A DNA stretch of 64,000 bases from Methanothermococcus sp. Ax23 (GCF_049075655.1 NZ_CP157522.1:480001-544000); one strand, 5' to 3'. Counted from the first letter of the stretch, positions 1,414-64,000 are shown. The notes: generated by a model from the sequence alone, not told the origin. Numbers and translations: made by a program.

Positions 1414-1938
1414 ATGGCTAAAAAACCGATTATAGCGAAGCTTTCAGACGACAGAGTTTTGATATTCAACAGAGACGGCATTTCAAGATTAAATGCAAAA
1501 GGATATGGCGAATTGAATGATAATTTTTTATCCATTTCATTGGTTGAATCGCTATATTTAGTTTCCAAAAACTGGATTAAGGTTAAATCCAAAAAAGATA
1601 GATTTTTATCTTTTGAAGAATTATATGATTACGCACATAACATTGATGAGAGATTGTGCATAAAATATTTAGTTTATAAAGATTTAAGAAACAGGGGCTA
1701 TACAGTAAAAACTGGCTTAAAATACGGCTCTGATTATAGATTATATAGTAGGGAAAATATCAACGAAGTTCATTCCGAATATCTTGTTAAAGTTTTTTCC
1801 GAAGATAGACCCTGCGCTATTTCAGAGCTCACTGGGTTTGTGAGGGTGGCACATTCCGTAAGGAAAAAACTTATAATTGCCATTGTAGATGATGATGGCG
1901 ATATTGTTTATTACAACATGGGATACTTGCGACTTTAA
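1414..1938 (+). CDS. endA: tRNA-splicing endonuclease (alpha4 type)
   Basis: YLVYKDLRNRGY..GLKYGSDYRLY..HSEY..RVAHSVRKK catalytic Y/H/K motifs. Confidence 0.95.
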   Translation: MAKKPIIAKLSDDRVLIFNRDGISRLNAKGYGELNDNFLSISLVESLYLVSKNWIKVKSKKDRFLSFEELYDYAHNIDERLCIKYLVYKDLRNRGYTVKTGLKYGSDYRLYSRENINEVHSEYLVKVFSEDRPCAISELTGFVRVAHSVRKKLIIAIVDDDGDIVYYNMGYLRL

Positions 1939-2013
1939 AAAAGAGATGATTAATATAATTAAATAAAATAATTAAATAAATTACATAGATAATTAAATAA
2001 ATAAGGTGATATT

Positions 2014-3045
2014 GTGAAACTTATGCCTGAAAATGAGAAAAAACTTATTATGGATATCTTGATGAAATATGGGATAAATAAAAAAGACGCAGAAACCACA
2101 GCAAATATATATGTTGAGGCAGATTTAAAGGGTTTTACATCACATGGAATTGGAAGATTCCCACAAACAGTGGTGGGTCTTGAAGTGGGAAACATCAAAC
2201 CAAATCCTGAAATGAAAATAATAAAAGAAAGTCCTGCAACTGGGACAATTGATGGAGATATGGGATTAGGTTATGTAATTGGTGAAAAGGCAATGAATAT
2301 GGCAATTGAAAAGGCAAAAAACGTAGGTATTGGTGCAGTTGCCACTGTTAATGCAAATCACTTTGGTATTACCGGACATTACTCAGAAATGGCACTTAAT
2401 GAGGATTTAATAGGCATTGCCATTACAAATACAGAACCTGCAATGGCTCCCTTTGGAGGAACTGAAAAGATTTTAGGGACAAATCCAATAGCAATAGCAA
2501 TCAAGGGGAAAAAATATACATATTCCCTTGATATGGCTACTGCATCCATTGCCCGGGGAAAAATACTTGAAGCTCTAAGAGTTGGAAAAGAAATTCCAGA
2601 AGGCTGTGCTGTGGATAAAGAGGGAAATATAACTACAAATCCGGAAAAAGCACTGGAAGGATGTATTCTTCCATTTGGAGGACCTAAGGGCTATGGTCTT
2701 GCGTTGGCTATTGAAATCATCTCAGCAATCGGCGGAGCTCAGATGGGAACAAATGTAAAGGGAACCGCAAATCCAACGGACAAATGCACAAAAGGAGATT
2801 TCTTTATGGCAATAAATCCTGAATTCTTTGGAGATAAAGAGGAGTTTATGGAAAAGGTCGATAATCTTGTAGAGGAAATAAAAAACTCAAAACCAGCGGA
2901 AGGATTTAGCATATTAATTCCAGGGGAAATTGAAAAAATGAATATTGAAAAAAACAAAAATGGCTTTGAGATAGACGATGCATTGTATAATAAATTAAAA
3001 GATATTTGCGATAAAAATGGTTTAAACATTAACGAATACTTTTGA
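2014..3045 (+). CDS. comC: L-sulfolactate dehydrogenase (Ldh2 family)
   Basis: Ldh_2 motifs SHGIGR, NHFG, GTNPIA, DMATA, GGPKGYGL; methanogen context. Confidence 0.85.
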   Translation: MKLMPENEKKLIMDILMKYGINKKDAETTANIYVEADLKGFTSHGIGRFPQTVVGLEVGNIKPNPEMKIIKESPATGTIDGDMGLGYVIGEKAMNMAIEKAKNVGIGAVATVNANHFGITGHYSEMALNEDLIGIAITNTEPAMAPFGGTEKILGTNPIAIAIKGKKYTYSLDMATASIARGKILEALRVGKEIPEGCAVDKEGNITTNPEKALEGCILPFGGPKGYGLALAIEIISAIGGAQMGTNVKGTANPTDKCTKGDFFMAINPEFFGDKEEFMEKVDNLVEEIKNSKPAEGFSILIPGEIEKMNIEKNKNGFEIDDALYNKLKDICDKNGLNINEYF

Positions 3046-3106
3046 AAATATATTTATATATTATCCTCTTAATAAATATTTGGTTATACAAGTTGGAGGG
3101 AATTAA

Positions 3107-3955
3107 ATGAAAATAAACTATAAAATAATAGCAATTATACCTGTGATATTGACTATTATTTCAGGCATTTTTGTATATGCTCATGGATTAAAGGAAAGTA
3201 TAGACGTGAGCGGAGGTACTGAAATAACAATAACTGCTCCAAATAATGTGGATATCAACAAATTAAAAGAGATACTTCCCACAGGAGTTGAGGTAAAAAA
3301 ATCTCAGTCAGTATCTGGGACATTTATTATAATAAAAGCTGGAAAAGATGTGGATACATCCCAAATCGATACGGCATTAAAAAATTTCTTTAATGTGGAT
3401 GATTTGAATAAACTCCAATACTCCCAAAAACAAATTGGAGCATCGTTAAGTGAAAAATTCTGGAAGGATGGATTTAAAGCTGTTGGATTTGCATTCATAT
3501 TTATGGCTATTGTAGTATATCTCGTATTTAGGACTCCTGTCCCTAGTGCTGCGGTTATACTTGCAGCCGTGTCTGATATCGTGCTTGCAATTGGCGGTAT
3601 GAGTTTATTTGGAATACCAGTATCAACTGCCACGGTTGCAGCTCTACTTATGCTTATCGGATACAGTGTTGATACCGACATTATGCTCACCACAAGGGTA
3701 TTAAAAAGAAGAGCGGGAAGCCTAGATGAAAGAATAAATGAATCCATGAAAACTGGAATGACCATGTCCATAACAACCATTGTGGCTATGTTTGTGCTAT
3801 ATTTGGTGGTGTCCTATATTGTGCCGGCTGCGAGTTTATTGAAAGATATTTCCGCAGTCATATTGTTTGGTTTAATTGCGGATTTAATGACCACATGGAT
3901 GACCAATGTAGGTATTTTAAGATACTACGTTTCAGAGTATAAGGGCAGAAAATGA
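3107..3955 (+). CDS. secF: Protein-export membrane protein SecF
   Basis: SIDVSGG, IGYSVDTDI motifs; adjacent to secD. Confidence 0.92.
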   Translation: MKINYKIIAIIPVILTIISGIFVYAHGLKESIDVSGGTEITITAPNNVDINKLKEILPTGVEVKKSQSVSGTFIIIKAGKDVDTSQIDTALKNFFNVDDLNKLQYSQKQIGASLSEKFWKDGFKAVGFAFIFMAIVVYLVFRTPVPSAAVILAAVSDIVLAIGGMSLFGIPVSTATVAALLMLIGYSVDTDIMLTTRVLKRRAGSLDERINESMKTGMTMSITTIVAMFVLYLVVSYIVPAASLLKDISAVILFGLIADLMTTWMTNVGILRYYVSEYKGRK

Positions 3956-3993
3956 AATGGGCCATAATGGTATAAATCATACTAAGAAAATTA

Positions 3994-4041
3994 ACAAAAT
4001 CCCTTCGGTTTTGTAAATCAGAAAATCCAAAAGATTCACTT
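3994..4041. repeat. Short double-hairpin palindromic module (degenerate copy of 26330-26379)
   Basis: acaaaatcccttcggttttgt..aaatccaaaagatt aligns with acaaaatcccttcgggattttgt..aaatccaaaggatt at 26330. Confidence 0.7.
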
Positions 4042-4087
4042 CTAAAAGAAAAAAGGAAAACGAATTATAGATATTGAGGGATATATT

Positions 4088-5260
4088 ATGAAACTATTGA
4101 GCGATAGTAAAATATTAATCCTAATCGGATGTATCATTCTATCGATACTTCTAATCTCATTTAAGGGCATTTCATTTGGGGTTGATTTAAGTGGGGGCTC
4201 TACAATCGTATTAAAAACTGACGAACCCCTTTCAGAGCAGAACATGACCGTGGTTACTACGATATTATCAAGTAGATTAAATGCAAATGGTTTAAGTGAT
4301 ATTACTGTTTATCCCAGGGGAAATGACGAAATAATTGTTGAGATACCCAAAACTGCTGATTTAGATAGAATAAAAAAGATTCTAACTCAACAGGGTGTTT
4401 TTGTAGCTAAAATAGACAACATTACTGCATATACTGGGCAGGATGTGGCATATGTTGAAGAACCTGGATTAACACCATCAGGATATGGAGTAAGTTTTAA
4501 ACTAACTCCCGAAGGGGCAGATAAATTTGCAAAAGTGGCTTATGGAAAAGGAGGACATGCCGTAGAGCTCTACATGGATGGTAGATTAGTAAGCAATCCT
4601 ACACTTTCTCCAGGATTGGCAGATGGAAAACCACATCCAGACCAGATAATCACTGTTGCAGGAAAAAATCCAACCAAACAGGATGAAGACGAAGCATGGG
4701 CAATATATACTGCATTAAAATCAGGTTCTTTACCAGTTAAAGTTCATATTGAATATGTAAGTTCCATATCACCAACACTTGGAGAAGAATTCATTAAGGG
4801 AGCGGCAATAGCAGGATTGTTTGCATTCTTAGCAGTCGGGGCAGTTGTTGCAATTAGGTATAAAAAGCCTATGATTGTTTTACCTATACTTATAACCTGT
4901 GCCTCCGAAATTTTAATCATACTTGGATTTGCATCGGCAATTGGCTGGAAACTTGATTTAGCATCAATTGCTGGAATTATCGCCTCGGTTGGAACTGGGG
5001 TTGATGACCAAATAGTCATAACAGATGAAACACTTTCAAGAGAGTCAAAAAGAGTCAAAAAAAGTATTAAACGAGCATTCTTTATTATATTTGCAGCAGC
5101 AGGAACTACAATTGCCGCAATGCTTCCATTGTTTGTTATGAGCATTGGTATGTTAAAGGGATTCGCCATTACAACAATAGCTGGTGTATTAATTGGTATA
5201 TTGATTACAAGACCTGCATTTGCAAGAATCGTTCAATATGTCGTGAAAAAAGAATATTAA
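4088..5260 (+). CDS. secD: Protein-export membrane protein SecD
   Basis: GVDLSGG, LKSGSLP, GTGVDDQIVI motifs. Confidence 0.93.
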   Translation: MKLLSDSKILILIGCIILSILLISFKGISFGVDLSGGSTIVLKTDEPLSEQNMTVVTTILSSRLNANGLSDITVYPRGNDEIIVEIPKTADLDRIKKILTQQGVFVAKIDNITAYTGQDVAYVEEPGLTPSGYGVSFKLTPEGADKFAKVAYGKGGHAVELYMDGRLVSNPTLSPGLADGKPHPDQIITVAGKNPTKQDEDEAWAIYTALKSGSLPVKVHIEYVSSISPTLGEEFIKGAAIAGLFAFLAVGAVVAIRYKKPMIVLPILITCASEILIILGFASAIGWKLDLASIAGIIASVGTGVDDQIVITDETLSRESKRVKKSIKRAFFIIFAAAGTTIAAMLPLFVMSIGMLKGFAITTIAGVLIGILITRPAFARIVQYVVKKEY

Positions 5261-5467
5261 TATACATTATTATAGAAAATATTTTTTATCTTTTTTATCT
5301 TTTTGTCATAAACATGGCGAGAATTGAAAACATTTTTGTTTAATTTAATTTATATGATTTAAAATAAATTTTTTTATCATCTCAACCCATATTAAAATAA
5401 ATAATAAATAGGAGATAGGATGATATTGATTTGATGATTTTTCTATAAAGAATATTTTAAAATTACA

Positions 5468-6496
5468 GTGATGTGCATGAATATAAAAAGAATTTTAAAA
5501 AATATATTGTTGTATGGGACCGGTATTATTATAATATTGTTGATAATATGGCATATAGGCGTTAAAGAAATAATTGCTGTATTTTTATCAATGAATATAT
5601 ATCTTTTTTTATTGGCGACATTTATCTATTTTCTAACCATTTTTATTATTGTGATGCGTTGGAGGTCCCTACTACAAATAAATAATTACAATGCAAAACT
5701 TAAAAATTTATTCCTATTAATTGTAATGGGACAGTTTATAAACAATATAACTCCATCCATGAAAGGTGGAAGTGAGCCATTTAGAGCATATTATCTCTCA
5801 AAATTAGAAAATATTCCAAATCATGTTTCATTTTCGAGTGTTGTGGTTGAGAGATTATTGGACACCATGGTATTCTTAATATTAACATTTTTTGTAATCA
5901 TATACTTCATAATACATGGAATCATCTATGCAAAGGAGCTCATATTTATATGGATTACCATTGGTGGATTAACAGCCCTTGCTTTATATATCATAATGCA
6001 TAAAACATTAGCATTTAAAATTACATTAAAAATAGTAAAAATTATATCAAAATTTTCTTCAAAAACCATAAATGAAGATAAAATAAAGGAATCCATAAAT
6101 CGATTTCAAGATAACATAAAATTTTTTAAAAACAATAAAAGAAAAATAATTATGCCATTTATATTATCATTTGGCTGGTGGTTTCTTGATATTTTAAGGA
6201 TATACATATTATTTTTAGCAATTAAATGCAATATTTCACTTGTGGCAGTATCCTCAACATACTTAGTATCCCTCCTTATAGGCATTCTCCCAACATTGCC
6301 TGGAAGTCTTGGAACCTCCGATGCTGTAATGATTGCCATGTATTCGCTGTTCAATATTCCTTATTCAAAAGCTGCTGCTGGAACGATTTTAGATAGAATA
6401 ATTTCCTATGGATTAGCCACAATAATGGGAGCTCTTGCATTTAAGATAATAAAAAAGAAAATAAAAACCAAAAAATATAAAGATATAGGAATATAA
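5468..6496 (+). CDS. UPF0104 / flippase-like multi-pass membrane protein
   Basis: RW..FINNITPS..GGSEPFR..ERLLD..PGSLG..R pattern, many TM segments. Confidence 0.85.
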   Translation: MMCMNIKRILKNILLYGTGIIIILLIIWHIGVKEIIAVFLSMNIYLFLLATFIYFLTIFIIVMRWRSLLQINNYNAKLKNLFLLIVMGQFINNITPSMKGGSEPFRAYYLSKLENIPNHVSFSSVVVERLLDTMVFLILTFFVIIYFIIHGIIYAKELIFIWITIGGLTALALYIIMHKTLAFKITLKIVKIISKFSSKTINEDKIKESINRFQDNIKFFKNNKRKIIMPFILSFGWWFLDILRIYILFLAIKCNISLVAVSSTYLVSLLIGILPTLPGSLGTSDAVMIAMYSLFNIPYSKAAAGTILDRIISYGLATIMGALAFKIIKKKIKTKKYKDIGI

Positions 6497-6560
6497 AAAC
6501 TAAAATGATAAACTAATTAACGATAAACTAATTAATGACGAATTAGCAATTGGTGAGACT

Positions 6561-6980
6561 ATGATAATCAATATTACCACTGGAAGAATGATGAAATCCC
6601 TTGAAGCGTTTAAAGGTTCAAAACCAATTTATGATAGAAATGGGCTTTTAATTGTAAGGGGCGTTTGTAGGGATAAGAATTTTGAAAACTATGATTCAAT
6701 TAAACAATATCTTGAAAGTAAATTAAAAGAAAATGGTTTTGAAATTGTAGATAATGAAGAGATGGTTTTATTTATGGAAAAAATTGATGAAAAACTTGGG
6801 GAAGAAAGTGATATATATCCTGATACTTTTGGATTTGAGATATTGAAAAAATCTTTTGAAGATATGGGATGCGAATGCGATTACGCCATTGGAAAAAAGG
6901 GAGAGCTCATGCTTGGAATAAGTTTATGGTATGACAAAATTAGAGGAGCTCCGAAGTTTGTAGAAGTTGTTTGTTGCTAA
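6561..6980 (+). CDS. Methanogen conserved protein (DUF2120-like)
   Basis: GRMM..AFKGSKP..GFE.LK.SFE.MGC.CDY pattern; GGTGA RBS. Confidence 0.7.
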   Translation: MIINITTGRMMKSLEAFKGSKPIYDRNGLLIVRGVCRDKNFENYDSIKQYLESKLKENGFEIVDNEEMVLFMEKIDEKLGEESDIYPDTFGFEILKKSFEDMGCECDYAIGKKGELMLGISLWYDKIRGAPKFVEVVCC

Positions 6981-7016
6981 ATTAGTTATTTTTCTTTTTG
7001 TTTTTTTATATTTTAC

Positions 7017-7390
7017 GATAAACCGCCGAGAAAGCCAACGATTTTAATCGTTATACAAAACATAGTTTTGTAAAATCTCTTATGAGATTGGATGAGAGGC
7101 GGACATTATATCGGCTAGTAAGTAGTAAAATATAAATATGTGAAGATTAGTAGTAAGTAACGCTACCAGTCCAAGTATCTATGGGTAGGGTTATCGAAAA
7201 CTCTACCGCTGGTAGTGTTTGGAAGTTCAAAAGGTAGCCCTGAATCTCCTAAACGGGGATAGGGGTAGTGGGTTTGGCCACCGTGTAGGGTTAAACCCTA
7301 CTAAAATTAGACGAAATCACTTCGTGATTTCGTTGCTCGCTTACTACCGTAAGCGAGAACCCAACGAGTTCACTCGTTGGAGTAGGTCAG
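7017..7390 (+). mobile_element. Non-autonomous IS200/IS605 derivative, family 1 copy A (no tnpA/tnpB)
   Basis: Near-identical to 44127-44498 and inverted 35860-36234; left-end hairpin aaaccgcc..ccaacg/cgtt..gg..ggcgg after TTTAC; right-end hairpin ccaacgag-ttca-ctcgttgg ending TCAG; no target duplication. Confidence 0.85.
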
Positions 7391-16421: not shown

Positions 16422-16958
16422 ATGAGGGGAATTAATCCATTCATCTTAAATTTAATTGTTTTAACATCAATAATTGCATTAATTGGTTTAGTGTATTTTT
16501 TTATGAGCTCATATATTATATTACTTCTCACTGCAATTTTGTTTATATCCTTAATAATTTATGCTTATTCTGTTATAGAAGTGATGGGGACAAATAAGGG
16601 AAAATTAGTTTATAAACCTAAATTAAACCTATCTAAATTGAGATATGATTCAGTTATGTTTATAATATTTATGATTATGTTTATACTACATTCTAAAGAA
16701 ATCATATCTATGAATTTATTAATAATATTCATTATATTGTATTTCATTTACAACCATTTGGGAAATTACATTATTTGGAAACCTCCTATTAAAGTATATG
16801 AAAAAGGCATTGTTTTGGGAGATACTGCTTTTTATAAATGGGATGAATTAAATATAAAAGATGAAGGGGATAAAATAAAAATAAAGATAAAATATTATCC
16901 AAAAGAGGTTGTTTTAGATAAAAATATATTAAAGGGTGTAGATTATGAAAGGGATTAA
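16422..16958 (+). CDS. Membrane protein with C-terminal DUF5673/PH-like domain, paralogue 1
   Basis: About 4 TM segments; MxGINP start, NKG motif, YEKG..AFY.W.E shared with the next two ORFs. Confidence 0.75.
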   Translation: MRGINPFILNLIVLTSIIALIGLVYFFMSSYIILLLTAILFISLIIYAYSVIEVMGTNKGKLVYKPKLNLSKLRYDSVMFIIFMIMFILHSKEIISMNLLIIFIILYFIYNHLGNYIIWKPPIKVYEKGIVLGDTAFYKWDELNIKDEGDKIKIKIKYYPKEVVLDKNILKGVDYERD

Positions 16959-24087: not shown

Positions 24088-25016
24088 TAGTGTGGGTCAT
24101 ATTACACTCTAACCTCTAATACCTTCATATAAGGATAACCTCTGGTAATGAGATTATATAGTGCTAAAACCTGTGCAGAAACTACTGCACAGAGACAGAA
24201 TACTTTTTTACGAATATAACCTTTGATATTAATCCAAAACTTATTCATAAATCGGTTCTTTAATATTGAATTGGTGTGCTCTATTTTAACTCTTATCTTA
24301 GAAACTTCCGAAGGAAGTTTCTTTTTATTTTTCCTACCCAATCTCCGTGGATTATGTGCTGTTATTAGTTCATTTTTGTATAATTCTATCGCTTTTTTTT
24401 AAATCTTTTGAATCATAGCCTGCATCTGCACAGGACTTTTTGGTAGGTACTAATAATTTATCAGCTACTTTACAATCGTGAGTATTTGCTGTGGTAAATT
24501 CTGCTCTTAATGGTATTCCTAACTTATCTACTGCTAAATGTAATTTAAAGCCTTTAAACATTCCTACACTGTTATATCCTATCTTTCCCTCAATATCTGT
24601 TTCGTCTTTTATTGGAGTGCTATCGTATATTGACCATTCAGGATTATTTAGTTCAATATATTTATCACCTAATAAAGTAATTATTGCATGCAATTCTTCA
24701 TCTAGGGATTTTTTCCATCTATCGATGGTTCTTCTACCAGGGCAGGATTTAAATCCTAATGCAGTTAAAATCTGTGGATTATTTTGTAAGTGTAATACTA
24801 ACGCTCTATTTGAATGTATGCCTTTTAAAAAGGCATACACTAATAGTTTAAGCCTCAACTCTAAATTATATCCTTTTCTCCCTACCTTTCTTCGTTTAGG
24901 GATTCGGTCAATTAAATCTGATGTAATTATCTCATTTACCACTTCCTCAGCCTTCATATTATCGTCTTTTTTATAATATTATATTTAGTATAGGTTATAT
25001 ATTTTGACCCATACTA
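24088..25016 (-). mobile_element. Insertion sequence (IS5/IS1182-like DDE), about 0.93 kb
   Basis: Terminal inverted repeats TAGT(G/A)TGGGTCA; flanking direct repeat GGATTCATTTATAT at 24074 and 25017; encloses a transposase. Confidence 0.9.
24102..24957 (-). pseudogene. DDE transposase split by a one-base frameshift at an A8 run (about 24393-24400)
   Basis: N-terminal GRKGY..LL..SNR.L domain, YDSTP, GFKLHL, ADAGYDS; removing one A joins it to NPRR..RVKIEHTN (catalytic E) in ORF 24102-24341. Confidence 0.85.
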
Positions 25017-26552: not shown

Positions 26553-28916
26553 TTAGAAAAAACTATCCAATGTTATTTGTTTATTAAGGTTTTTGAGCTC
26601 ATCCTTTGAAATTCCTAATGATTCCATTATCCGTAATACGGGCGGTAAAATTTGATTATCAATATAATATGATGTATCGTAATCTTTTGCATCCTCTGGA
26701 AGAGTTGCCCTTTCACTTATAGATTTATTTCCACTAATTATTATATATCCTATCACATCCCCTACTTTTAATCTCCCGCCATTTTTTAATATTTTTTTTG
26801 CCACTTCAACATGGGGTGCTGTGGTTTTATATTCGTTGATATCCTTTGTGAGCTGAGTATATATTATTAAATCCTTTTTATCGATTTTTCCATTTCTTAA
26901 ATCTGTTATGGTGTCCCTTATAATACTTTTTGCCTTTTCAATATCCCCCTCTTTTAACAGGGTTTCTAAAACATCTCTTTGAGTTTTCTTTGCAATATTC
27001 GACCAGTCCCGCCTTACAAACTCTAATCCTTTTATTGTTATTTTATCGTTTTCGTCGATAAGTGCGTATCTCTTTTTTGTGATAAATATACCCCTTTTAT
27101 AGTATCCTTCAAACTCTAACTCCATATCTTTTGGAAGTTTTTCATTTATTCTGTTTAAAAATTCATAGGTTTTATTTAATAGGGTTTTTTTATCGGTGTT
27201 TTTCTTCAATACTGAATATAATCCATCAGTGTCAGCATATATTACTTTAAATCCGTTTTTTTCCGCTTCTTCAATAGTTTTTTGAATATATGTCCTGCCC
27301 AAATGTGTAATTATTTCGGCACATTCCTTCGAATACCACCGAGCTCTTGGATAAGCCATATATCCATAATATGAATTTGCCAATGTCTTCAAAGATTTTT
27401 GCTCATAATTTAGCAGATTATAGTATTCAGAGTTATTTTTATATTTATCATCTTTTTTACTGTCTTTCTCTTTTAAAATTTTTTTAATATTTTTTCTCCT
27501 TTCAATCAAGTTCCTTAATACTTTTGGAATAAGTCCAGTTCTTCTTTTACAAAACCAATGACCCAATATCTTTTCAGATGTATCCTCACAGCATTTGCAG
27601 TCGATGGTATCAGGGCTAATATTGTAGCTTATTATGATGGAAGGGTAGAGAGCTCTGAAATCCATACTCACAATATTTTCATGCATGCCCTTAATTGGCT
27701 CCTTTACATAACCCCCTTCATAATATCCCCTTAATCTTTTTTGATATTCTCTGTTTGAAGGTTTATTTGGTGCTAAAAAGTTGTTATTAAATGAATGCTT
27801 TAATAAAAGATATTCAACCATCTGACTGCTTCCCATTCTGCTAACTTCGAATAGTGTTTGATTTACAATTCTTGAAAACATGACCTCCAACGGCAAAAAA
27901 TATTCTCCAATTTTGTATGTATAATAAGCGTCTTGAAAAGAGTATTCAACAAGATTTTTATCCATATTATTCCACAGATTTGATATATTTTGATGCCCAA
28001 CTTCTAACTTATGCACCCCAAAGAGCTCATAACTTACATCTTCCAATTTATATTTTGTTAGGTTTAGGGTTCTTCTTGCTATTGGATATAAATCAATATG
28101 CACTTTTCCCGGAATATAGCTTCTTAAATGAATTCCCCCTCGTGAAATCTTTATTTTCTGTTTTTTCTGTTTATCAAAAGATACATCTATTCCAAAATGC
28201 TCAGCTCTTCTTTTTAAATAAGGAAAATCAAAGTTATCGCCGTTGTAAGTGTATATTATATCGTAATCTTTTAGAATGTCAATTGTTCTTTTTATAAGTT
28301 CTTTCTCATCCATCACGAGCTCCACATATTCATGCTCAAAAGGTTTGTATGTTATTACTTTTTTTAAGTCCTTTGAACAAAAACTTGTCATCAATATGGG
28401 GTTTTTCTCTGGGTCAGGTTCTCTGCCTTCGCAATATACTTCCATATCAAAGGAAATGGTTTTTAATTCTGGTAGGTTGTTATTTGCTATTATTCTGTTT
28501 TCATCCTCAAAATCATTATAGTATGTTGTTGGGATTATATTTTTATCAATTAAATACCGCTTTGTAAATGGAATGTCGTGTTCATATATTTCTCCGAGCT
28601 CCTTTAATACTCTCAGTTTTGGAACATCTTTTGGATACTTTACAGTTATTTTTGTAAGATTCTTTTCAATTATTCGATTTTTTGAGTCATTGAGATTACT
28701 GTTTATAATAATCTTTTTTACAGTTTCAAGGTCTTCGATATAATTTAGGAGATTTTTTTTATCCTCATCACTACTTAAAAAGTCATTTATTTCCTTTATA
28801 GGGGCATCCACATAAAAATATGGTTTAAAATTATTCTCTTTTAAAATTCTATTTAGCAGATATAGGTAGATACATTTGTCTTCTGAATCGTAATTTATAT
28901 CAATAAGGGCATCCAT
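26553..28916 (-). CDS. polB: Family B DNA polymerase, intein-free
   Basis: FDME, YNGDNFDFPYL, DFRALYPSII, KTLANSYYGY, YADTDG, C-terminal PIP box QITLDSFF. Confidence 0.97.
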   Translation of the reverse strand: MDALIDINYDSEDKCIYLYLLNRILKENNFKPYFYVDAPIKEINDFLSSDEDKKNLLNYIEDLETVKKIIINSNLNDSKNRIIEKNLTKITVKYPKDVPKLRVLKELGEIYEHDIPFTKRYLIDKNIIPTTYYNDFEDENRIIANNNLPELKTISFDMEVYCEGREPDPEKNPILMTSFCSKDLKKVITYKPFEHEYVELVMDEKELIKRTIDILKDYDIIYTYNGDNFDFPYLKRRAEHFGIDVSFDKQKKQKIKISRGGIHLRSYIPGKVHIDLYPIARRTLNLTKYKLEDVSYELFGVHKLEVGHQNISNLWNNMDKNLVEYSFQDAYYTYKIGEYFLPLEVMFSRIVNQTLFEVSRMGSSQMVEYLLLKHSFNNNFLAPNKPSNREYQKRLRGYYEGGYVKEPIKGMHENIVSMDFRALYPSIIISYNISPDTIDCKCCEDTSEKILGHWFCKRRTGLIPKVLRNLIERRKNIKKILKEKDSKKDDKYKNNSEYYNLLNYEQKSLKTLANSYYGYMAYPRARWYSKECAEIITHLGRTYIQKTIEEAEKNGFKVIYADTDGLYSVLKKNTDKKTLLNKTYEFLNRINEKLPKDMELEFEGYYKRGIFITKKRYALIDENDKITIKGLEFVRRDWSNIAKKTQRDVLETLLKEGDIEKAKSIIRDTITDLRNGKIDKKDLIIYTQLTKDINEYKTTAPHVEVAKKILKNGGRLKVGDVIGYIIISGNKSISERATLPEDAKDYDTSYYIDNQILPPVLRIMESLGISKDELKNLNKQITLDSFF

Positions 28917-45236: not shown

Positions 45237-45334
45237 ATTTTCGCTCTTTATGTTTTAACATGCATATTTGCCAATTACATTTAAAACTATTTTAGATATA
45301 TTTAAATATACAAATACATATTTATAAAATAAAA

Positions 45335-45409
45335 CGCCCTGGCCGGGATTTGAACCCGAGTCACAGGAGTGACAGTCCTGTATGATAGGCCGAGCTACAC
45401 CACCAGGGC
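45335..45409 (-). tRNA. tRNA-Asp(GTC), distal copy
   Basis: Anticodon arm cagga-ctGTCac-tcctg; identical to 45667-45741. Confidence 0.95.
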
Positions 45410-45424
45410 AAATGTATAAAAAAA

Positions 45425-45542
45425 GGCTGACGGCGTCACCCTGTTCCCACCGAAAGGCAGTACTTAGGGTATCGCTGGAGGGCTTAATTTCCGAGATCGG
45501 AACGGGATCGGATGTGGCACCTCCGCTATGACCGTCATGCCA
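45425..45542 (-). rRNA. rrf: 5S rRNA, distal copy
   Basis: cggtcatagcgg..ccgatcccgttccgatctcggaaattaagcc..agtactg; ends approximate. Confidence 0.93.
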
Positions 45543-45558
45543 AAAATGTTAATCGTAG

Positions 45559-45632
45559 CGGGCCCGAAGGGATTCGAACCCTCGACCGCCTGGTTAAAAG
45601 CCAGGCGCTCTACCAGACTAAGCTACGGGCCC
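45559..45632 (-). tRNA. tRNA-Lys(TTT), distal copy
   Basis: Anticodon arm cctgg-ctTTTaa-ccagg. Confidence 0.95.
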
Positions 45633-45666
45633 AACAATTTCTATATAATCAATATAATTAATAAAA

Positions 45667-45741
45667 CGCCCTGGCCGGGATTTGAACCCGAGTCACAGGA
45701 GTGACAGTCCTGTATGATAGGCCGAGCTACACCACCAGGGC
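45667..45741 (-). tRNA. tRNA-Asp(GTC)
   Basis: Cloverleaf, GTC anticodon. Confidence 0.95.
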
Positions 45742-45756
45742 AAATGTATAAAAAAA

Positions 45757-45874
45757 GGCTGACGGCGTCACCCTGTTCCCACCGAAAGGCAGTACTTAGG
45801 GTATCGCTGGAGGGCTTAATTTCCGAGATCGGAACGGGATCGGATGTGGCACCTCCGCTATGACCGTCATGCCA
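45757..45874 (-). rRNA. rrf: 5S rRNA
   Basis: Identical to 45425-45542 at +332; ends approximate. Confidence 0.93.
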
Positions 45875-45890
45875 AAAATGTTAATCGTAG

Positions 45891-45964
45891 CGGGCCCGAA
45901 GGGATTCGAACCCTCGACCGCCTGGTTAAAAGCCAGGCGCTCTACCAGACTAAGCTACGGGCCC
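45891..45964 (-). tRNA. tRNA-Lys(TTT)
   Basis: Cloverleaf, TTT anticodon. Confidence 0.95.
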
Positions 45965-45971
45965 AATTATG

Positions 45972-46048
45972 TGGTCCGGCGGGCCGGATTTGAACCAGCG
46001 ACATGCGGATCTACAGTCCGCCGTTCTACCACGCTGAACTACCGCCGG
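45972..46048 (-). tRNA. tRNA-Tyr(GTA), CCA encoded
   Basis: Anticodon arm gcgga-ctGTAga-tccgc; C1-G72. Confidence 0.95.
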
Positions 46049-46071
46049 ATAGTGATTAATTAGATAATAAG

Positions 46072-46149
46072 TGGTGGGCCTGCCCAGATTTGAACTGGGG
46101 TCTCAGGATCCCAAATCCCAAAGGATGGACCAGGCTACCCCACAGGCCC
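46072..46149 (-). tRNA. tRNA-Pro(TGG), CCA encoded
   Basis: gggcctg acceptor stem, anticodon loop ttTGGga. Confidence 0.93.
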
Positions 46150-46171
46150 TATTATATATTCTGAAACATCA

Positions 46172-46245
46172 AGCCCCGGGGGGGATTCGAACCCCCGACC
46201 ACCTGATTACAAGTCAGGCGCTCTACCAGGCTGAGCCACCGAGGC
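46172..46245 (-). tRNA. tRNA-Thr(TGT)
   Basis: Anticodon arm cctga-ctTGTaa-tcagg. Confidence 0.95.
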
Positions 46246-53017: not shown

Positions 53018-53174
53018 ATGAGCTCAGAAGTGGCAACTAAAAATTTATATATATAACCCATAGGAATATACTGAATTTATGAGATACTAAACTTTATAAA
53101 TAACTTATAGTATATTATTAGAAATATTAATAATAGGAATAATTACATTATAAAAAGAGTGATAAAGTAAAAGA

Positions 53175-58029: not shown

Positions 58030-58494
58030 TTATTCTTTAACATCTACAAGTTTTATTGTAAATATTAAATCCTTTCCTGCTAATTGGTGGTTGAAGTCCA
58101 AAACTACTTCGTTATCTTTAACTTCAATAATTGTAGCTGGAACGCCGCCTGCAAGAATTATCATGCCTTCTTCTGGTTCAAAGTCTGCTCCTTCGAATGC
58201 TTCTTTTGGAATTGTCTGAATTAATTTTTCATCTCTCTGTCCATAAGCTTTTTCTGCTGGGATATTTACTGTTTTTTCGTCCCCCACATTCATATCAAGA
58301 ATTGCTTCTTCAAATCCTTCAATAAGTTGTCCTTCTCCAACGGTAAATTCCAAAGGTTCATATGGTCTCTCAGGCGTGTAAATGCCTTCTTCCTTAGCAA
58401 CACTTTCAATTGATGTATCGAAAACTTCTCCACTTTCTAATTTACCTATGTAATCAACCTTTACTTTATCGCCTTTTTTTACCAAAAAAATCAC
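58030..58494 (-). CDS. Short-type FKBP PPIase/chaperone (FKBP17/SlyD-like)
   Basis: [41 protein letters not shown]. Confidence 0.93.
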
Positions 58495-58649
58495 ATCCTA
58501 TGTTTTAATTTTAATAAAATTAATTAAATATAACATGCTATATATATTTTTTGTTCTTGTTTATGGTATATTTGTTTATGGTAACTAATTATAATGATTA
58601 TATGATTTGATTAAAATGATATAAATTATAAAACGATATTGGTGTTTAA

Positions 58650-59102
58650 ATGTCTAAGAAAGTAGTTGTTGGCGGAACTTTTGATATACTTCATGAAGGT
58701 CATAAAAAACTTCTAAAATATGCCTCACAATTTGGGGAGCTCCACATAGGTGTAACATCCGATGAATTTGCAAAAACATACAAAACCCATAACATAAATC
58801 CATTAAATATTAGATTGAAAAACTTAAAAAAATATCTTGACGACCATAAAATTAATTACGAGATATTGGTTATAGACGATGCTTATGGGGATACCTTAAA
58901 AAAAGATTATGATATAATTGTAGTTACTCCTGAAACAGAAAAAAATGCTAAACGAATAAATGAAATAAGGGTAAAAAACAATCTAAAACCCCTTGAAATA
59001 ATGGTTTATGATTACGTATTAAGTGAAGATAAAAAACCAATATCTACAACAAGAATAAGAAATAAAGAAATAGATGAAAAAGGAAGATTGTTAAAAAAAT
59101 AA
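58650..59102 (+). CDS. coaD: Phosphopantetheine adenylyltransferase (archaeal type)
   Basis: [32 protein letters not shown]. Confidence 0.9.
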
Positions 59103-59193
59103 TTAAAATTCGAGATTATGGCTCCCATGTTTCGTATAACTCCATGTTTCGCTATGAAAGAAAAACATAAAATTAAAAAATTGGTGTAATACT

Positions 59194-60108
59194 ATGGATA
59201 TAATGATTATAATAGTTCTTTTAATATTAACAGGTTATCTATCAAAATACTTTAATATTCTAAGAGAGAGCGATAGAACTATACTCAACAACATTGTAGT
59301 ATATATTGCAATGCCTTCAACAATATTTTTAACAATTATGAAAAATGTTTCACCTGTGGATTTGCCTCAATTTTTAAAACTGCCTTTTTTGATATTTTTA
59401 ACATTTGTCATTTGTGGATTTATAGGATACCTCATTGGAAGATTCTTAAAACTAAATAGAGAATCATTGGGGGGATTAATATTAGTTTGTGCATTGGGAA
59501 ACACTGGATTTTTAGGCTATCCTGTAATATATGGATTTTATGGAACAGAAGGACTTACAAGAGCAATATTTTGCGACATGGGGAGTGTTTTTGCGAGTTT
59601 ATTAATTGGAACATACATCGGTATAAAATTTGGAAAAAATAAAAATAGCGATAAGTCTGTAATAAAGGAGCTCCTAAAATTCCCACCATTGATGACTGGT
59701 GTTATAAGTATAACCCTTGTATTTTTTGGATTATCTATTGGTAGTTTTCCAGAGTTTTTTATTAAAACGCTGAATTACTTGTCAAATGCCACAATACCTT
59801 TAATTATGTTATCTCTTGGATTGTCGTTATCCCCGAGCTCTGCAAAATTCGGTGCTATTTATGGAGTCATAGCATCCATAGTTAGAATGGGGATTGCTCC
59901 TTTAATCGTGTTTGTCCTTTCATCCATATTTTTAATAGATGGACTGGATAAAAATGTATTAATACTTGAATCTGCAATGCCCTCTGCAATGATGTCCTTA
60001 GTATTCTCTGTGCTTTATGGATTAGATGTAAAACTCGTAGCTTCGGCATGTTTCATAACCACGGTGGTTTCTTTGATGGTGTTGCCAATATTGCAGGGTA
60101 TATTGTAA
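59194..60108 (+). CDS. AEC (auxin efflux carrier) family transporter
   Basis: GNTGFLGYP, SAMPSA, multiple TM segments. Confidence 0.9.
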   Translation: MDIMIIIVLLILTGYLSKYFNILRESDRTILNNIVVYIAMPSTIFLTIMKNVSPVDLPQFLKLPFLIFLTFVICGFIGYLIGRFLKLNRESLGGLILVCALGNTGFLGYPVIYGFYGTEGLTRAIFCDMGSVFASLLIGTYIGIKFGKNKNSDKSVIKELLKFPPLMTGVISITLVFFGLSIGSFPEFFIKTLNYLSNATIPLIMLSLGLSLSPSSAKFGAIYGVIASIVRMGIAPLIVFVLSSIFLIDGLDKNVLILESAMPSAMMSLVFSVLYGLDVKLVASACFITTVVSLMVLPILQGIL

Positions 60109-60173
60109 AATAGATTGATAGGGATGAATAGGTTAAGACATATGCCAATAATAAATATATTAAACCATACCGT

Positions 60174-60581
60174 TTATGACCAATTTATATAAACATAGTC
60201 ATCATACTTTACCAGTGAAACGTTTATTATACCTAAATTTGTCTTATATGTATTATTATTAGTAATTAAATTTATATCGCATGTTGTAGTTATGTTATAT
60301 CCATTTCCTTTTAATGTTATATTTCTCCCATTAATTTCCCATTCCGCAGGTGGGGATTTTATATATACCACCTTTTTAGAACCTTTATCCGCAACGGAAA
60401 GCATATCTATATTGGTTTTTAATTTAGATAATGCAGCATGACCTAAACTTGCAGATGATACCTCCACTGTTTTTTTATAACCATACATGCCAGGAGTCAT
60501 TGTGGATACTATCACAACGACCAGCAGTGCCAAAAATAGTATGGAAAATTCCAAAGAAATTTGTCCCCTCATACCAAACAC
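60174..60581 (-). CDS. Class III signal peptide (pilin-like) protein
   Basis: MRG-QISLEF plus hydrophobic helix. Confidence 0.85.
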   Translation of the reverse strand: MFGMRGQISLEFSILFLALLVVVIVSTMTPGMYGYKKTVEVSSASLGHAALSKLKTNIDMLSVADKGSKKVVYIKSPPAEWEINGRNITLKGNGYNITTTCDINLITNNNTYKTNLGIINVSLVKYDDYVYINWS

Positions 60582-61406
60582 CTAATTATACTTTTTATCC
60601 CAATACATAACATACGCAAAATCTATTGGTTGTTTATCGGATGTTGTAAATGCCATTGCAGGCACATCAAACAATTTTAAATTAACACCACTGCCAAAAC
60701 TATCATCCATATTTGGAACTAACGCATCATCGATATTATATAACTCAGGATTTTGCTTGTAGGCTGTTTTTTTATGCTTATTGATGTATTCATTATAGGA
60801 GCTCACCCAAATATCTACATCATATTTTCCAAAAATTTTGTTAAATTGATAGTAGTTATCCAAAACAAGTGGTGCTGGAACAATTATACTTATAACTTCG
60901 GAATTATCCGATTTTATTATTGAACCTCTGACATAGAGTTTAAAATTATCAAGCATGATTCCTTTTTGATATATGGGAAATACCTGTTTTAAATTTAAAA
61001 TCTTCGTAGTATCTACCAATGCTGGACCTGCAATATCGTAATTTACCTGAGACTCATCAATATTTAACGTATAATTTAAGATACCCTCTCTACTTATTTT
61101 TACCGTGGTATATGGTGGAATCCAAAATCCCCTTTTTCCATTTAATATAGTATTGTAAAAAACCGTACCATCTGGGTTATCCACAATATTGCCTGACAAA
61201 CTTACTTTTAAAAAGTCGTTTGAGGATTTTAATGTTTTATCGGTGTAATCTATATTATCGGGCACAGCCACAAATACAGTATATGGATTGGCGTTGGTAA
61301 TTTCACCAGTTAATACCCAATACCCATCCATTGTAGCTATTGCTGTTTCTGCAAACCCGATTGGAATAAGGACAATAAGGAGAATTATGGGAATAATATA
61401 TTTCAT
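60582..61406 (-). CDS. Secreted hypothetical protein in a pilus-associated cassette
   Basis: N-terminal signal peptide; GFWIPPYT motif; tightly coupled to neighbours. Confidence 0.75.
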   Translation of the reverse strand: MKYIIPIILLIVLIPIGFAETAIATMDGYWVLTGEITNANPYTVFVAVPDNIDYTDKTLKSSNDFLKVSLSGNIVDNPDGTVFYNTILNGKRGFWIPPYTTVKISREGILNYTLNIDESQVNYDIAGPALVDTTKILNLKQVFPIYQKGIMLDNFKLYVRGSIIKSDNSEVISIIVPAPLVLDNYYQFNKIFGKYDVDIWVSSYNEYINKHKKTAYKQNPELYNIDDALVPNMDDSFGSGVNLKLFDVPAMAFTTSDKQPIDFAYVMYWDKKYN

Positions 61407-61410
61407 AACA

Positions 61411-62556
61411 TCACCCTGCCTTTACAATATAGGCATTGCTACTTTTTAATGAAATGATTTCCGGTACTGAATCTGATGGAATGGATAATATTAACAGATA
61501 TTGGACACTACCATCAAATATCTGCGTATCTGATTGTATTTTATTTAGTTTTTCCCCATATCTACCAAATTTTTCATTAATTTTGTTATAATCGAGTTTA
61601 TCAGCAGCAGTTGCATACAATACTCCTGGAAGATTGTTCAGAGAGTAAGATACTGATGAAGAACTTGAAGCTGATGTAGAATCTCCATTATCATTTAAAT
61701 TACTTGAAACGTCCTTTGTTTCTGAATAAGATATATCTTTAAGTATAACATATGAAGAATTAACAATTCCTACAATGGGCTCTTTGCTTGCATTGCTTTT
61801 ATCATATATTAGTATTTTATCCCCTTCATAAGGTATCTTACCACATTGCATTGCAGATACCACAATTGTAATTTTATTATCGAACGATACCGGGGTTATT
61901 GTAATACCTTTGAGCTCTGCCAAACTTAATCTTTTTACATATTCTGAGAGTTCTTCTTTTGTCATGAGTTTCTTTGTCTTCCCCATTTCAACACTAAAAT
62001 AATCTCCAATGGCCAGTTCATTAATAATTTCATTCAAATAATACTCCTTTGCATTTTCTTCAATATTGCTATTTTTAATAATCTCATCAACTTCATTTCG
62101 TGATTTAGCAGATTCTATCTGATTAACCAGTGATTTCGCATAGAAACTTCTATCGTAATATTTTCCATATGTATTTTTTATTAAATTAATCATCTCTTCC
62201 TTGTAGGATTTAAACGCCATATAATTCTTTGCATTATTCAGTACATTGTTCAATTCCTCATTGGTATTACTGTTTTGAATCTGGGAAATATACACGATTT
62301 TATTTGGGTCATTCGGATATCTGGAAAACATTTGATTTATACTATTTATTGCCATATTTTTGCTATTCTCAAAAGCTTTTGTTTTTTGAATCTGCTCGTT
62401 ATACTTGCTATTATAAACTGTATATAATACAAATGACATGCCTATCGCAATTAAGGCTATCAAAACATATTTCACATATTTAGACCTATCTCCAGATGTT
62501 CTTTTAGTTTTTGATTTCAATTTTTTTAATTTATTGCCAAAATCCTCATTAACCAT
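61411..62556 (-). CDS. DUF515-like membrane-anchored protein
   Basis: KLKKLK.K, single TM, helical repeats, SYSL.NLPG.L.A.AA.KLDY; start at MVNEDF after GGAGAGG. Confidence 0.75.
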   Translation of the reverse strand: MVNEDFGNKLKKLKSKTKRTSGDRSKYVKYVLIALIAIGMSFVLYTVYNSKYNEQIQKTKAFENSKNMAINSINQMFSRYPNDPNKIVYISQIQNSNTNEELNNVLNNAKNYMAFKSYKEEMINLIKNTYGKYYDRSFYAKSLVNQIESAKSRNEVDEIIKNSNIEENAKEYYLNEIINELAIGDYFSVEMGKTKKLMTKEELSEYVKRLSLAELKGITITPVSFDNKITIVVSAMQCGKIPYEGDKILIYDKSNASKEPIVGIVNSSYVILKDISYSETKDVSSNLNDNGDSTSASSSSSVSYSLNNLPGVLYATAADKLDYNKINEKFGRYGEKLNKIQSDTQIFDGSVQYLLILSIPSDSVPEIISLKSSNAYIVKAG

Positions 62557-62737
62557 GTTATCTGCCTCTCCAAAACATTGCATTAAATGGCGTGAAACAA
62601 TACTAAAAACATGTAATAAAAACATATAATAAAAACATGTACTTTTAGAAGTATAATTTATAAATATATTAATTAGCATTTAAATAAATATTTGATTGTT
62701 ATTTAAAATGAATAATTATTGCAGTAATAAATATAAT

Positions 62738-63712
62738 CTAAAACCTTTGGAATTTCAAACTATGGAGGTAATCTGCCAAACTAATTAAATAATCCCTATT
62801 TTTAATACCTTTCACCCATCTTTCTGGCATATTATTAAATCCATAATATGTGCCAGCAATAGCACCATATATACATCCTAAGCTATCTGTATCCCCACCA
62901 GCATTTACTGCTTTAATCATTCCAGTTTTAAAATCATTTGTTAAATAGAATGTTAAAATAGCAGAAGGAACGCATTCAATAGCATCCATCCCAGTTCCAA
63001 ATAATTCATATCCTTCTTCTACTGTTTCCATTTGTTTTATAATTAATATCTTTTCTGCAAATTCTTCTGAAATATCCAATATAAAATCTGCAAGTTCTGA
63101 TATAAAATTTTTAGAGTGATTACATCGAACGATTTTGCAAGATTTAGATAATGGGTTATTTGTATTTAAATTTTTCAAACACCACGAAACCAGAAAACCT
63201 ACTGCCAGAGCTCCGGCTATTGCCTCGTTGTTGTTATGGGTTATTTTAGATGCCTCGATTATGACATTTTTTAATTCATGGGGATTATTATAATAAAAAA
63301 TTCCCAATGGCGATATTCTCATCGCAGCACCACAGGTTTTTGAATCTATGCCATTATAATTCCCATTTATTATATTCTCAATTGCCTTTTTACTTGTTGG
63401 CCCAATTCCAACAGGATTGTTCCTATACCATTTTATGAGCTCCTTTATAAATAAATTTTTATCAAAACCTTCTTTTGTTATTGACTTTATTAAACATATG
63501 GTTTGTTCTGTATCATCGGTATAATCTCCAGCATTTAATACATTTTTAAAATGGTTTTTAGGTGGCAAATAATCATCGATTACTCCATAGTTCGATATTA
63601 TTTCATTTTTTGTTAGCCCCTCAGATGGCATGCCAAGTGCATCACCTATTGCAGTTCCAAATATGCAACCTTGAATTTTATATTTATACTCCACATACTC
63701 ATAATTACCCAT
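62738..63712 (-). CDS. ADP-ribosylglycohydrolase (DraG/ARH family)
   Basis: G.AIGDALG, YTDDTE, GAAMR, TH, GGDTDS. Confidence 0.92.
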   Translation of the reverse strand: MGNYEYVEYKYKIQGCIFGTAIGDALGMPSEGLTKNEIISNYGVIDDYLPPKNHFKNVLNAGDYTDDTEQTICLIKSITKEGFDKNLFIKELIKWYRNNPVGIGPTSKKAIENIINGNYNGIDSKTCGAAMRISPLGIFYYNNPHELKNVIIEASKITHNNNEAIAGALAVGFLVSWCLKNLNTNNPLSKSCKIVRCNHSKNFISELADFILDISEEFAEKILIIKQMETVEEGYELFGTGMDAIECVPSAILTFYLTNDFKTGMIKAVNAGGDTDSLGCIYGAIAGTYYGFNNMPERWVKGIKNRDYLISLADYLHSLKFQRF

Positions 63713-63827
63713 ATAAAAACACCGATATTATGTTAGTTTTATATTATATTAATATATAATTGTAATTCAAAATAATTATTTATTTATCTTATTTTAATTA
63801 ATTTTAATTATTATTATGGGTGATATA

Positions 63828-64000
63828 TTGAGATACTTGGAGCTCTGCGACATTGAATATGCAAAAAGTATAGTTAAAGGAGTTATTGAATCCTATGAAA
63901 ATGAGGAAGTTAATCTATTTAACTCAATAAATAGGATTTTGACAGAGGATATAATTTCCAATGTTGATGTTCCACCATTTGATAGGTCAAAAATGGATGG
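63828..64000 (+). CDS. moeA: Molybdopterin molybdenumtransferase MoeA, 5' part (cut by window edge)
   Basis: TTG start after GGTGAT; RILTEDI...DVPPFDRSKMDG. Confidence 0.88.
   Translation, partial: MRYLELCDIEYAKSIVKGVIESYENEEVNLFNSINRILTEDIISNVDVPPFDRSKMD

Follow-up and report, generated by a model that had tools for sequence, protein, structure and literature searches.

The hexamer GAGCTC is hyper-abundant in the archaeon Methanothermococcus sp. Ax23 (GCF_049075655.1), both across the genome and in the 64,000-nucleotide stretch from which this work started, NZ_CP157522.1:480001-544000. We call that stretch the window and its source genome G000, so that the window is G000:C1:480001-544000. 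The palindrome occurs 82 times in the window against an expectation of 4.11 from 100 dinucleotide-preserving shuffles (standard deviation 2.16, largest count 12), and none of the 100 shuffles matched the observed number. An earlier reading of the window, made from the sequence alone (the sequence-only reading), had put the sites at about 80 where about 4 were expected, and both figures proved accurate. All 20 coordinates that it named, from 1825 to 63840, are in the site list; its examples of the three reading frames and of an intergenic site were correctly assigned (Table 1); and the 9 transfer RNA (tRNA) genes, two 5S ribosomal RNA (rRNA) genes and insertion sequence (IS)-type DDE transposase remnant of the window lack the motif, as it had said. 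GAGCTC is a genuine highly iterated palindrome (HIP) and an archaeal counterpart of highly iterated palindrome 1 (HIP1) of cyanobacteria.

The G000 assembly consists of 1,662,948 + 7,732 bases with a G+C content of 31.9%. Its genes were called as long open reading frames (ORFs) rather than taken from curated annotation, and expectations are based on mononucleotide composition except where another model is named. GAGCTC occurs 2089 times—2085 copies on the chromosome and 4 on the small contig, about one per 0.8 kb—and is the most over-represented of all 4096 hexamers, at 16.8 times the number expected from base composition; the second most enriched 6-mer palindrome reaches only 2.6. The observed-to-expected ratio (O/E) is 4.9 under a 3rd-order and 1.6 under a 4th-order Markov model. 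The last value is no refutation because a 4th-order model contains the 5-mers GAGCT and AGCTC, which hold the signal; as derived from the k-mer counts, C comes after about 81% of GAGCT copies. Permuting synonymous codons within the 1550 long ORFs leaves 188 ± 11 copies (30 shuffles) against 1940 observed, a 10.3-fold excess (z of about 160). The sequence-only reading had thought that its claim might fail through an O/E near 1 once codons and k-mers were modelled; the ratios found are 10.3 for the synonymous shuffle and 4.9 for the 3rd-order model.

We attach practically no credence to the view that the excess is an artefact of codon usage, dipeptide content, base composition or a repeat family. 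What speaks for it is the 4th-order ratio of merely 1.6, into which the signal is built as just described, and the distribution of the coding sites over the frames (1096 in frame 0, 620 in frame 1 and 224 in frame 2), in which 1096 of the 1940 encode Glu-Leu. Codon or dipeptide bias is ruled out by the synonymous shuffle together with the non-coding DNA, where 146 sites against 8.7 expected again give an O/E of 16.8; the contention of the sequence-only reading that protein coding fails to explain the sites is thereby upheld. Glu is encoded by GAG in 25% of cases and Leu by CTC in 6.6%, yet 1096 of the 3924 Glu-Leu dipeptides are written GAG-CTC; GAG precedes 39% of all CTC codons. A repeat family is ruled out because 2077 of 2085 GAGCTC contexts of 30 bases are distinct. 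Moreover, relatives of similar composition carry 6–16 sites.

The signal resides in DNA, not in proteins. Core genes, those common with two relatives, have an O/E of 17.0, non-coding DNA one of 16.8 and accessory genes, which lack homologues in those relatives, one of 13.1; on C2, a small contig of 7.7 kb that is probably a plasmid, there are 4 sites where 0.35 would be expected. Recognition of GAGCTC is all-or-none and takes in the whole hexamer: its one-letter variants fall into nine classes at 0.04–1.21 of expectation. General enrichment of AGCT is ruled out, since AGCT overall stands at 1.03 of expectation and the xAGCTx palindromes other than GAGCTC at 0.32–1.29 (AAGCTT 0.57, CAGCTG 1.29, TAGCTA 0.32), so that the equal enrichment of all xAGCTx words, the other way in which the sequence-only reading had thought itself open to refutation, is not what the genome displays. 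The bases flanking the site have a symmetric preference, C/A-G before it and C-G/T after it, which persists in non-coding DNA: at the 133 strictly non-coding sites G at -1 has a frequency of 0.38 and C at -2 of 0.30, against a background of 0.127 each. This symmetry suggests that the reader is itself two-fold symmetric and covers 10 bp or more.

Other palindromes of G000 present a different picture. GATC stands at 0.03 of expectation, GTAC at 0.07, ACGT at 0.10, CTAG at 0.14 and CGCG/GCGC at 0.13, and a dozen 6-mers lie at 0.02–0.06 (e.g., CTTAAG, GTTAAC, GTATAC, GTGCAC and CTCGAG, the last at 0.06). This avoidance points to heavy restriction pressure.

Sites are scattered almost at random along the genome. 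Their spacing is near exponential (gaps below 100 bp, 13.2% vs 11.8% expected; above 3 kb, 3.0% vs 2.3%). Density is nearly constant across classes of local GC content, at 0.89–1.38 per kb, while O/E drops from 22.7 to 9.7. Mobile and recently acquired DNA is poor in sites: the 18 TnpB-like (IS605-type) ORFs of G000, 17.7 kb in all, have 1 site where about 24 would be found at genome density. The fraction of Glu-Leu written as GAGCTC is 0.30–0.32 in genes 60–100% identical to those of a relative, G010, 0.28 at 50–60% identity and 0.144 in genes with no homologue in G010. Two side observations belong here. The first tenth of G000 genes holds 133 GAGCTC sites, against 184–230 in the other tenths. 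Among the TnpB-like ORFs, of which G000 has at least 18, three are 88–89% identical to a G010 copy, far above the genome average, and their identity suggests that elements may have been exchanged recently.

The enrichment is confined to few genomes. The 8-mer GGAGCTCC, which contains GAGCTC, was counted in 31 relatives and in 36 genomes of a wider set at completeness of at least 85%. Five of the 36 are enriched, namely G000 (333 copies), G012 (335), G003 (184), G013 (191) and G010 (1259), and all remaining genomes of the survey hold 1–35. GAGCTC itself numbers 2070 in G012, 1321 in G003 (a genome 90% complete), 1515 in G013 and 1645 in G010, compared with 16 in G002, 130 in G028 and 6 in 1.1 Mb of G005, none of which is enriched. 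In G010 the specificity is widened to the 8-mer: 1259 of its 1645 GAGCTC sites are GGAGCTCC, where about 2.2 are expected (O/E 571), as are 217 of the 240 in its non-coding DNA. The density of the G010 8-mer is 0.54–0.86 per kb across GC classes over which its expectation varies 9-fold.

A tree of the family-B DNA polymerase, drawn from 18 of 30 loci (left out were G018, G015 and ten genomes of genus g5 in which the gene was matched in pieces), unites G010, G000, G012 and G003 in one clade and places G013 outside the genus. In a sister clade of eight genomes GAGCTC is not enriched and AGCT is depleted. The 1.1 Mb of G005 contain 383 copies of AGCT against 3589 expected, and the 5.3-kb polymerase loci of G002, G004, G001, G005, G006 and G008 contain 0–3 copies each; this avoidance suggests long exposure of the sister clade to an AluI-type restriction system. 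Genus g3, with three genomes in the set and seven in the wider set, is not enriched. In the ten g5 genomes the polymerase comes as two or three separated pieces within open frames of 956–2142 amino acids (aa), as would be expected if the gene contained inteins.

Comparison between carriers shows that sites are actively retained in some lineages and abandoned in another. For this, 18–33 kb of the window were aligned to two close relatives, with other hexamers as control. G012 keeps 15 of 18 G000 sites (control hexamers 545/1486, 37%) and G000 keeps 15 of 22 G012 sites (control 40%). In G003, 19 of 40 G000 sites are kept (control 1331/2705, 49%), so that conservation beyond the control is found towards G012 and fails in G003, the samples being small; of the sites that G003 does have, 19 of 20 are kept in G000 (control 52%) and 7 of 7 in G012 (control 30%). 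Private sites in a three-way alignment number 0 in G003, 8 in G012 and 4 in G000 (ten sites in gapped columns were dropped). Sites are thus kept and gained in G000 and G012, whereas G003 acquires no new ones and sheds the old at the neutral rate; it follows that the force is inherited and that a lineage can switch it off. Loss is slowed about 5.5-fold from G000 to G012, as calculated from -ln(15/18) vs -ln(545/1486), and 2.4-fold in the reverse direction, new gains included; with S set to ln 16.8, the standard fixation formula leads one to expect a 5.6-fold slowing, a comparison between small numbers. Taken together, these data show a heritable force that acts at the DNA level, is specific for the whole hexamer, lowers loss about 2.4–5.5-fold and adds sites.

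The 12 lineage-private sites were compared with the closest sequence that either of the other genomes has in their place: it differs by one letter for 3 of them, by two letters for 7 and by three letters for 2, with flanks otherwise conserved. In the polymerase gene, sites coincide with conserved Glu-Leu pairs that non-enriched relatives write as GAATTA, GAGTTG or GAACTT, and the positions written GAGCTC differ between lineages. Across 773 orthologue triplets of G000, G010 and G005 there are 809 conserved Glu-Leu positions. G000 has GAGCTC at 267 of them and G010 at 128; the two genomes coincide at 70, with 42 expected in common under independence, and most sites therefore arose separately. 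Lineage-specific amino-acid changes at G010 sites outnumber those at the same peptides encoded otherwise in three comparisons (131 vs 103.5, 164 vs 126 and 85 vs 58.4), an excess of about 30–45% that G000 lacks and that we list in support as drive-like behaviour.

How might such a force work? Our favoured explanation, which we hold tentatively and at somewhat less than even confidence, is that GAGCTC is a self tag akin to HIP1 and Chi, read by a dimeric protein and kept by biased gene conversion. These lineages would encode a homodimeric, sequence-specific protein that recognises the motif in double-stranded DNA and is something other than a canonical cognate methylase, Vsr or NucS; this reader would act in recombination or repair. 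These archaea are polyploid, and when a heteroduplex or a break was resolved between their many genome copies, or from one cell to another, the allele with the full site would win; gene conversion would in this way be biased towards a 'self' tag of the Chi or HIP1 kind. The bias would have the effect of selection with a coefficient of about ln 17 at each site, and it would account for young mobile DNA being without the tag. A fuller and more specific version is possible, though we consider it doubtful: an archaeal HIP with no cognate methylase, in which a lineage-encoded reader tags chromosomes about once per kb and biases recombination or repair to tagged alleles, its specificity having grown from 6 to 8 bp once and been lost once. 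The central inference of the sequence-only reading, that a genome-wide HIP1-like process makes or keeps GAGCTC, draws support from the equal enrichment of coding and non-coding DNA, the codon shuffle, the contrast in conservation and the relative with the 8-mer.

Several points weigh against explaining the palindrome by a self tag and gene conversion. The recombination or gene-conversion step is pure inference because no reader protein has been identified, and different carriers could have non-orthologous methylases of the same specificity. The conservation figures come from 18–40 sites in one 18–33 kb region, and the carriers are few and non-independent, representing two or three evolutionary events at most. 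Stepwise point mutation would, by rough arithmetic, predict mostly one-letter precursors, unlike the 3 of 12 seen. Finally, a constant per-site bias does not explain constant density in the face of a 2–12-fold fall in O/E, which a density-dependent function fits at least as well.

That last point bears on the idea of a binding-site array, in which an abundant chromosome-organising or silencing protein requires a certain density of sites and selection keeps about one per kb. Density is indeed almost independent of local GC content and motif length (0.9–1.4 per kb in G000 and 0.5–0.9 for the G010 8-mer), in G010 the non-coding DNA, about 13% of the genome, holds 240 sites, a density no lower than that of coding DNA, and the symmetric flanks suggest the footprint of a dimer covering at least 10 bp. 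Yet spacing is near random rather than regular, the neutral loss in G003 implies that the function would be dispensable, one-letter variants lack the partial enrichment usual for architectural proteins, and no candidate protein was found. On balance we think an array improbable, if worth keeping in view.

Among possible mechanisms the sequence-only reading had placed first a methylation-directed very-short-patch repair around AGCT. Repair of this type by Dcm and Vsr enriches CCWGG in Escherichia coli, and it resembles the present case in that oligonucleotide frequencies move, across the whole genome, in favour of a short palindrome. The mechanism is not supported: G000 has no match to the C5 methylases (PF00145) and none of the 31 genomes one to Vsr (PF03852; control matched in 3 of 14), and NucS was likewise found in none of the five carriers. 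Nor are T-for-C variants depleted as such repair would have it, GAGCTT/AAGCTC standing at 0.61 and GAGTTC/GAACTC at 0.88 against 0.50–1.21 for transversion variants, although GAG-CTT and GAA-CTC are mildly under-represented, by about 30–40%, among the codon pairs for Glu-Leu (derived from codon-pair counts). The mechanism is counted against further by the observation that all six positions are favoured and acted on, that AGCT itself is not the target and that no methylase common to the five carriers was found.

A broader model, proposed for HIP1 by Elhai 2015 (PMC4390886, in its accessible text), would have each carrier's methylase modify GAGCTC and methyl-directed repair restore or fix the site, with methylases that are non-orthologous between carriers. 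Type II methylases and restriction enzymes typically show just such an all-or-none palindromic specificity of 6–8 bp, each carrier encodes one or more DNA methylases whose specificity is unassigned, and HIP1 has cognate methylases according to the available portions of three sources (PMC4390886; PMC13756078; 10.1101/2024.09.10.611283). In the site-losing G003, moreover, the orthologue of a 300-aa N6/N4 methylase of G000 contains one stop codon (and the ORF next to it four), and a D12-class methylase is split into two frames.

The distribution of the enzymes themselves argues the other way. Besides the 300-aa enzyme, G000 has one type III, one type I and two type IIG methylases and a 567-aa N6 methylase; no orthologue of any of them was found in G010, whose single recognisable DNA methylase (446 aa) has in turn no G000 orthologue, and no DNA methylase family or orthologue common to all five carriers was found. 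The 300-aa enzyme is missing from G010, G012 and G013 and present at 75–77% identity in four non-enriched genomes of the Methanocaldococcus group; the 567-aa enzyme (C1:63550-65253) occurs only in G000 and G003 and is intact in the latter; and in G012 there are just two type I HsdM genes and one D12-class enzyme, besides a weak type IIG-like match located on the second contig. G000 also lacks a C5 methylase. In the available part of a single-molecule real-time (SMRT) methylome of a Methanococcus aeolicus strain, m4C CTAG, m6A GTNAC, GCACY and CGAG and inferred m5C ACGT are listed and nothing with GAGCTC is reported, for a strain that may or may not carry the palindrome (PMC10113651). We rate the methylation-linked model, too, as rather unlikely.

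These distributions lead us to set aside, as the reader, the 567-aa methylase, the 446-aa methylase of G010, the type I, type III and type IIG systems (absent from G010) and the type II pair at G000:C1:1437541-1439159, which has the wrong distribution across genomes. This pair, the 300-aa methylase and a convergent 245-aa ORF with no Pfam match, is probably a restriction-modification pair; it is 68–77% identical to counterparts in five genomes of another family, and both genes are broken by stops in G003. Searches of Protein Data Bank (PDB) sequences with two methylases yielded no specificity. A 382-aa PUA-domain methyltransferase (C1:1214886) looks like an RNA methylase, and the AGOG glycosylase is widespread (19 of 31 genomes). 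GAGCTC is the site of SacI and AGCT that of AluI, and such restriction targets are normally avoided. The likeness lies in the sequence and in all-or-none palindromic recognition; the difference is that G000 avoids many palindromes while GAGCTC is enriched 16.8-fold. The RE_SacI family had no match in the 31 genomes, a silence that its control shared everywhere, so that absence is not shown.

The sequence-only reading had also entertained a DNA-uptake tag: the transformation machinery would recognise the motif, and preferential uptake followed by recombination would spread it, as with the DNA uptake sequence (DUS) and uptake signal sequence (USS) in Neisseria and Haemophilus. The DUS of Neisseriaceae and USS of Pasteurellaceae are 9–12 bases long and non-palindromic, occur about once per kb in dialects and need a competence machine. 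GAGCTC resembles them in its density of about one per kb, in its 'dialects' (8 bp long in G010, 6 bp in most carriers), in being scarce in recent DNA, with no sites in IS elements and half the density in accessory genes, and in lending itself to explanation by a transmission bias rather than a per-gene benefit; it differs from them in length and in being a palindrome. According to the accessible text of one study, Methanococcus maripaludis is naturally competent and a TctA-like gene is essential for its transformation (PMC10133366), and the available portions of recent work propose HIP1 as an uptake or Chi-like signal (PMC13756078; 10.1101/2024.09.10.611283). The TctA-like gene is intact in G000, G003, G010 and G013 and split into two frames in the otherwise complete G012 genome (C1:516935-518076). 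The uptake idea is weakened because G012 is an active carrier that keeps and gains sites; besides, the gene is intact in the site-losing G003 and in 20 of 26 non-enriched genomes. Genus g3, which we take to be that of the competent M. maripaludis, is not enriched, and the portion of the competence study available nowhere mentions uptake sequences (PMC10133366). An uptake sequence is accordingly quite improbable in our estimation.

Set beside HIP1 and the alternate HIPs, GAGCTC shares the main traits. The available text of the HIP papers describes HIP1 (GCGATCGC) and its alternates as short GC-rich palindromes present about once per kb, at tens to hundreds of times the expected number. They lie in every reading frame as well as in intergenic DNA, and related genomes conserve them to an extent that codons do not account for; some lineages have variant motifs and others have lost the signal (PMC4390886; PMC5861425). 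Here, too, abundance lies far above compositional and codon-aware expectation (16.8, 4.9 and 10.3, and 571 for the 8-mer), sites fall in all frames and in non-coding DNA, and nearly all of their contexts are unique. The differences are that the host is an archaeon; that the motif is GAGCTC or GGAGCTCC, HIP1 proper being cyanobacterial and CGATCG being found 3× in G000; that HIP1 accompanies DmtA and DmtC, where no cognate orphan methylase common to our carriers was found; that one-letter variants, common in the part of the HIP1 paper available (PMC4390886), are not enriched; and that the sister clade avoids the inner tetramer AGCT.

Chi offers a second comparison. Chi, the signal of RecBCD and AddAB, is asymmetric, strand-skewed and several-fold over-represented, and we know of no archaeal Chi. 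Both it and GAGCTC are over-represented, lineage-specific oligomers, Chi marking a cell's own DNA for the recombination machinery, but GAGCTC is palindromic. The sole AddAB-like pair seen, a UvrD-type helicase with a PD-(D/E)xK nuclease, lies in a five-gene island (G000:C1:1536507-1542521) that also encodes a weak kinase-like ORF, a DUF6884 protein and a TGT-family (DpdA-like) protein. The TGT gene occurs only in G000, G013 (81% identity), G010 (70%) and G028 (60%); it is missing from G012, and the island was rejected as a source of the reader. From its gene content, the island may be a 7-deazaguanine DNA-modification or defence system.

A presence/absence screen compared the 1550 G000 ORFs with all of G010 and with 73% of G005 as the negative comparator. 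It left 471 candidates, too many because 27% of G005 lay outside the comparison. Among the 16 candidates with clean synteny none was DNA-related except TnpB, and 44 further translations inspected by eye, five of them with a Pfam scan, yielded no reader. Many of the 44 were core genes, in which we believe we recognise the primase large subunit, TFE and MBF1.

No paper on over-representation of GAGCTC or GGAGCTCC in archaea appeared by title or abstract among the matches listed; supplements, which may list such palindromes, lay outside that search. The accessible text of the two HIP papers mentions archaea or methanogens 0 times (PMC4390886; PMC5861425). Until now hyper-abundant palindromes have been regarded as peculiar to cyanobacteria, and the present case is an independent archaeal one that comes with three natural contrasts: the keepers G000 and G012, the ceased keeper G003 and the 8-bp G010. 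The gene for the reader should come to light when complete genomes are compared across the three contrasts. Should it prove to encode something other than a methylase, current models of HIP1 would need to change, and the finding would point to a sequence-tagged bias of recombination or repair in polyploid archaea; a methylase-free reader would, if real, be a new kind of archaeal self-marking or gene-conversion drive and a handle on the 30-year-old HIP1 problem. In practical terms, SacI sites occur about every 0.8 kb in these genomes, and the tag could matter for methanogen genetics, e.g., in the design of donor DNA.

Table 1. Positions of GAGCTC and of related features in the window
Feature	Position	Strand	Basis
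Span of GAGCTC sites	1825..63845	.	82 matches
All GAGCTC sites, part 1	1825, 2735, 4565, 5936, 6429, 6903, 6946, 8608, 9418, 10229, 13020, 15011, 15755, 16051, 16219, 16505, 17874, 18233, 18616, 19180, 19715, 21168, 21186, 22044, 23143, 26595, 27341, 27650	.	Start coordinates, motif count
All GAGCTC sites, part 2	28023, 28317, 28596, 29736, 30429, 30571, 30648, 30858, 31584, 33768, 34691, 34806, 36699, 37079, 37315, 38600, 39028, 39445, 40668, 40704, 42367, 42820, 43256, 43940, 46385, 46706, 47101, 47837	.	Start coordinates, motif count
All GAGCTC sites, part 3	47928, 48378, 48453, 48753, 48980, 50028, 50073, 50739, 51387, 51711, 51735, 53020, 54548, 55119, 55868, 56291, 56468, 57822, 58737, 59668, 59835, 60799, 61912, 63208, 63437, 63840	.	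Start coordinates, motif count
Frame-0 example, GAG-CTC (Glu-Leu), in ORF 1414-1938	1825..1830	+	Reading-frame assignment
Frame-1 example, xGA-GCT-Cxx, in ORF 2014-3045	2735..2740	+	Reading-frame assignment
Frame-2 example, xxG-AGC-TCx, in ORF 16422-16958	16505..16510	+	Reading-frame assignment
Intergenic example	53020..53025	.	Outside any ORF
Family-B DNA polymerase gene, six sites (26595, 27341, 27650, 28023, 28317, 28596)	26553..28916	-	Marker for tree and codon alignment
tRNA/5S rRNA cluster, no GAGCTC	45334..46245	-	RNA gene calls vs site list
IS-type DDE transposase remnant, no GAGCTC	24102..24957	-	Transposase match vs site list

Within the RNA gene cluster, a tRNA-Asp / 5S rRNA / tRNA-Lys unit is present as a tandem duplicate (45334-45964), the two copies having identical Rfam scores.

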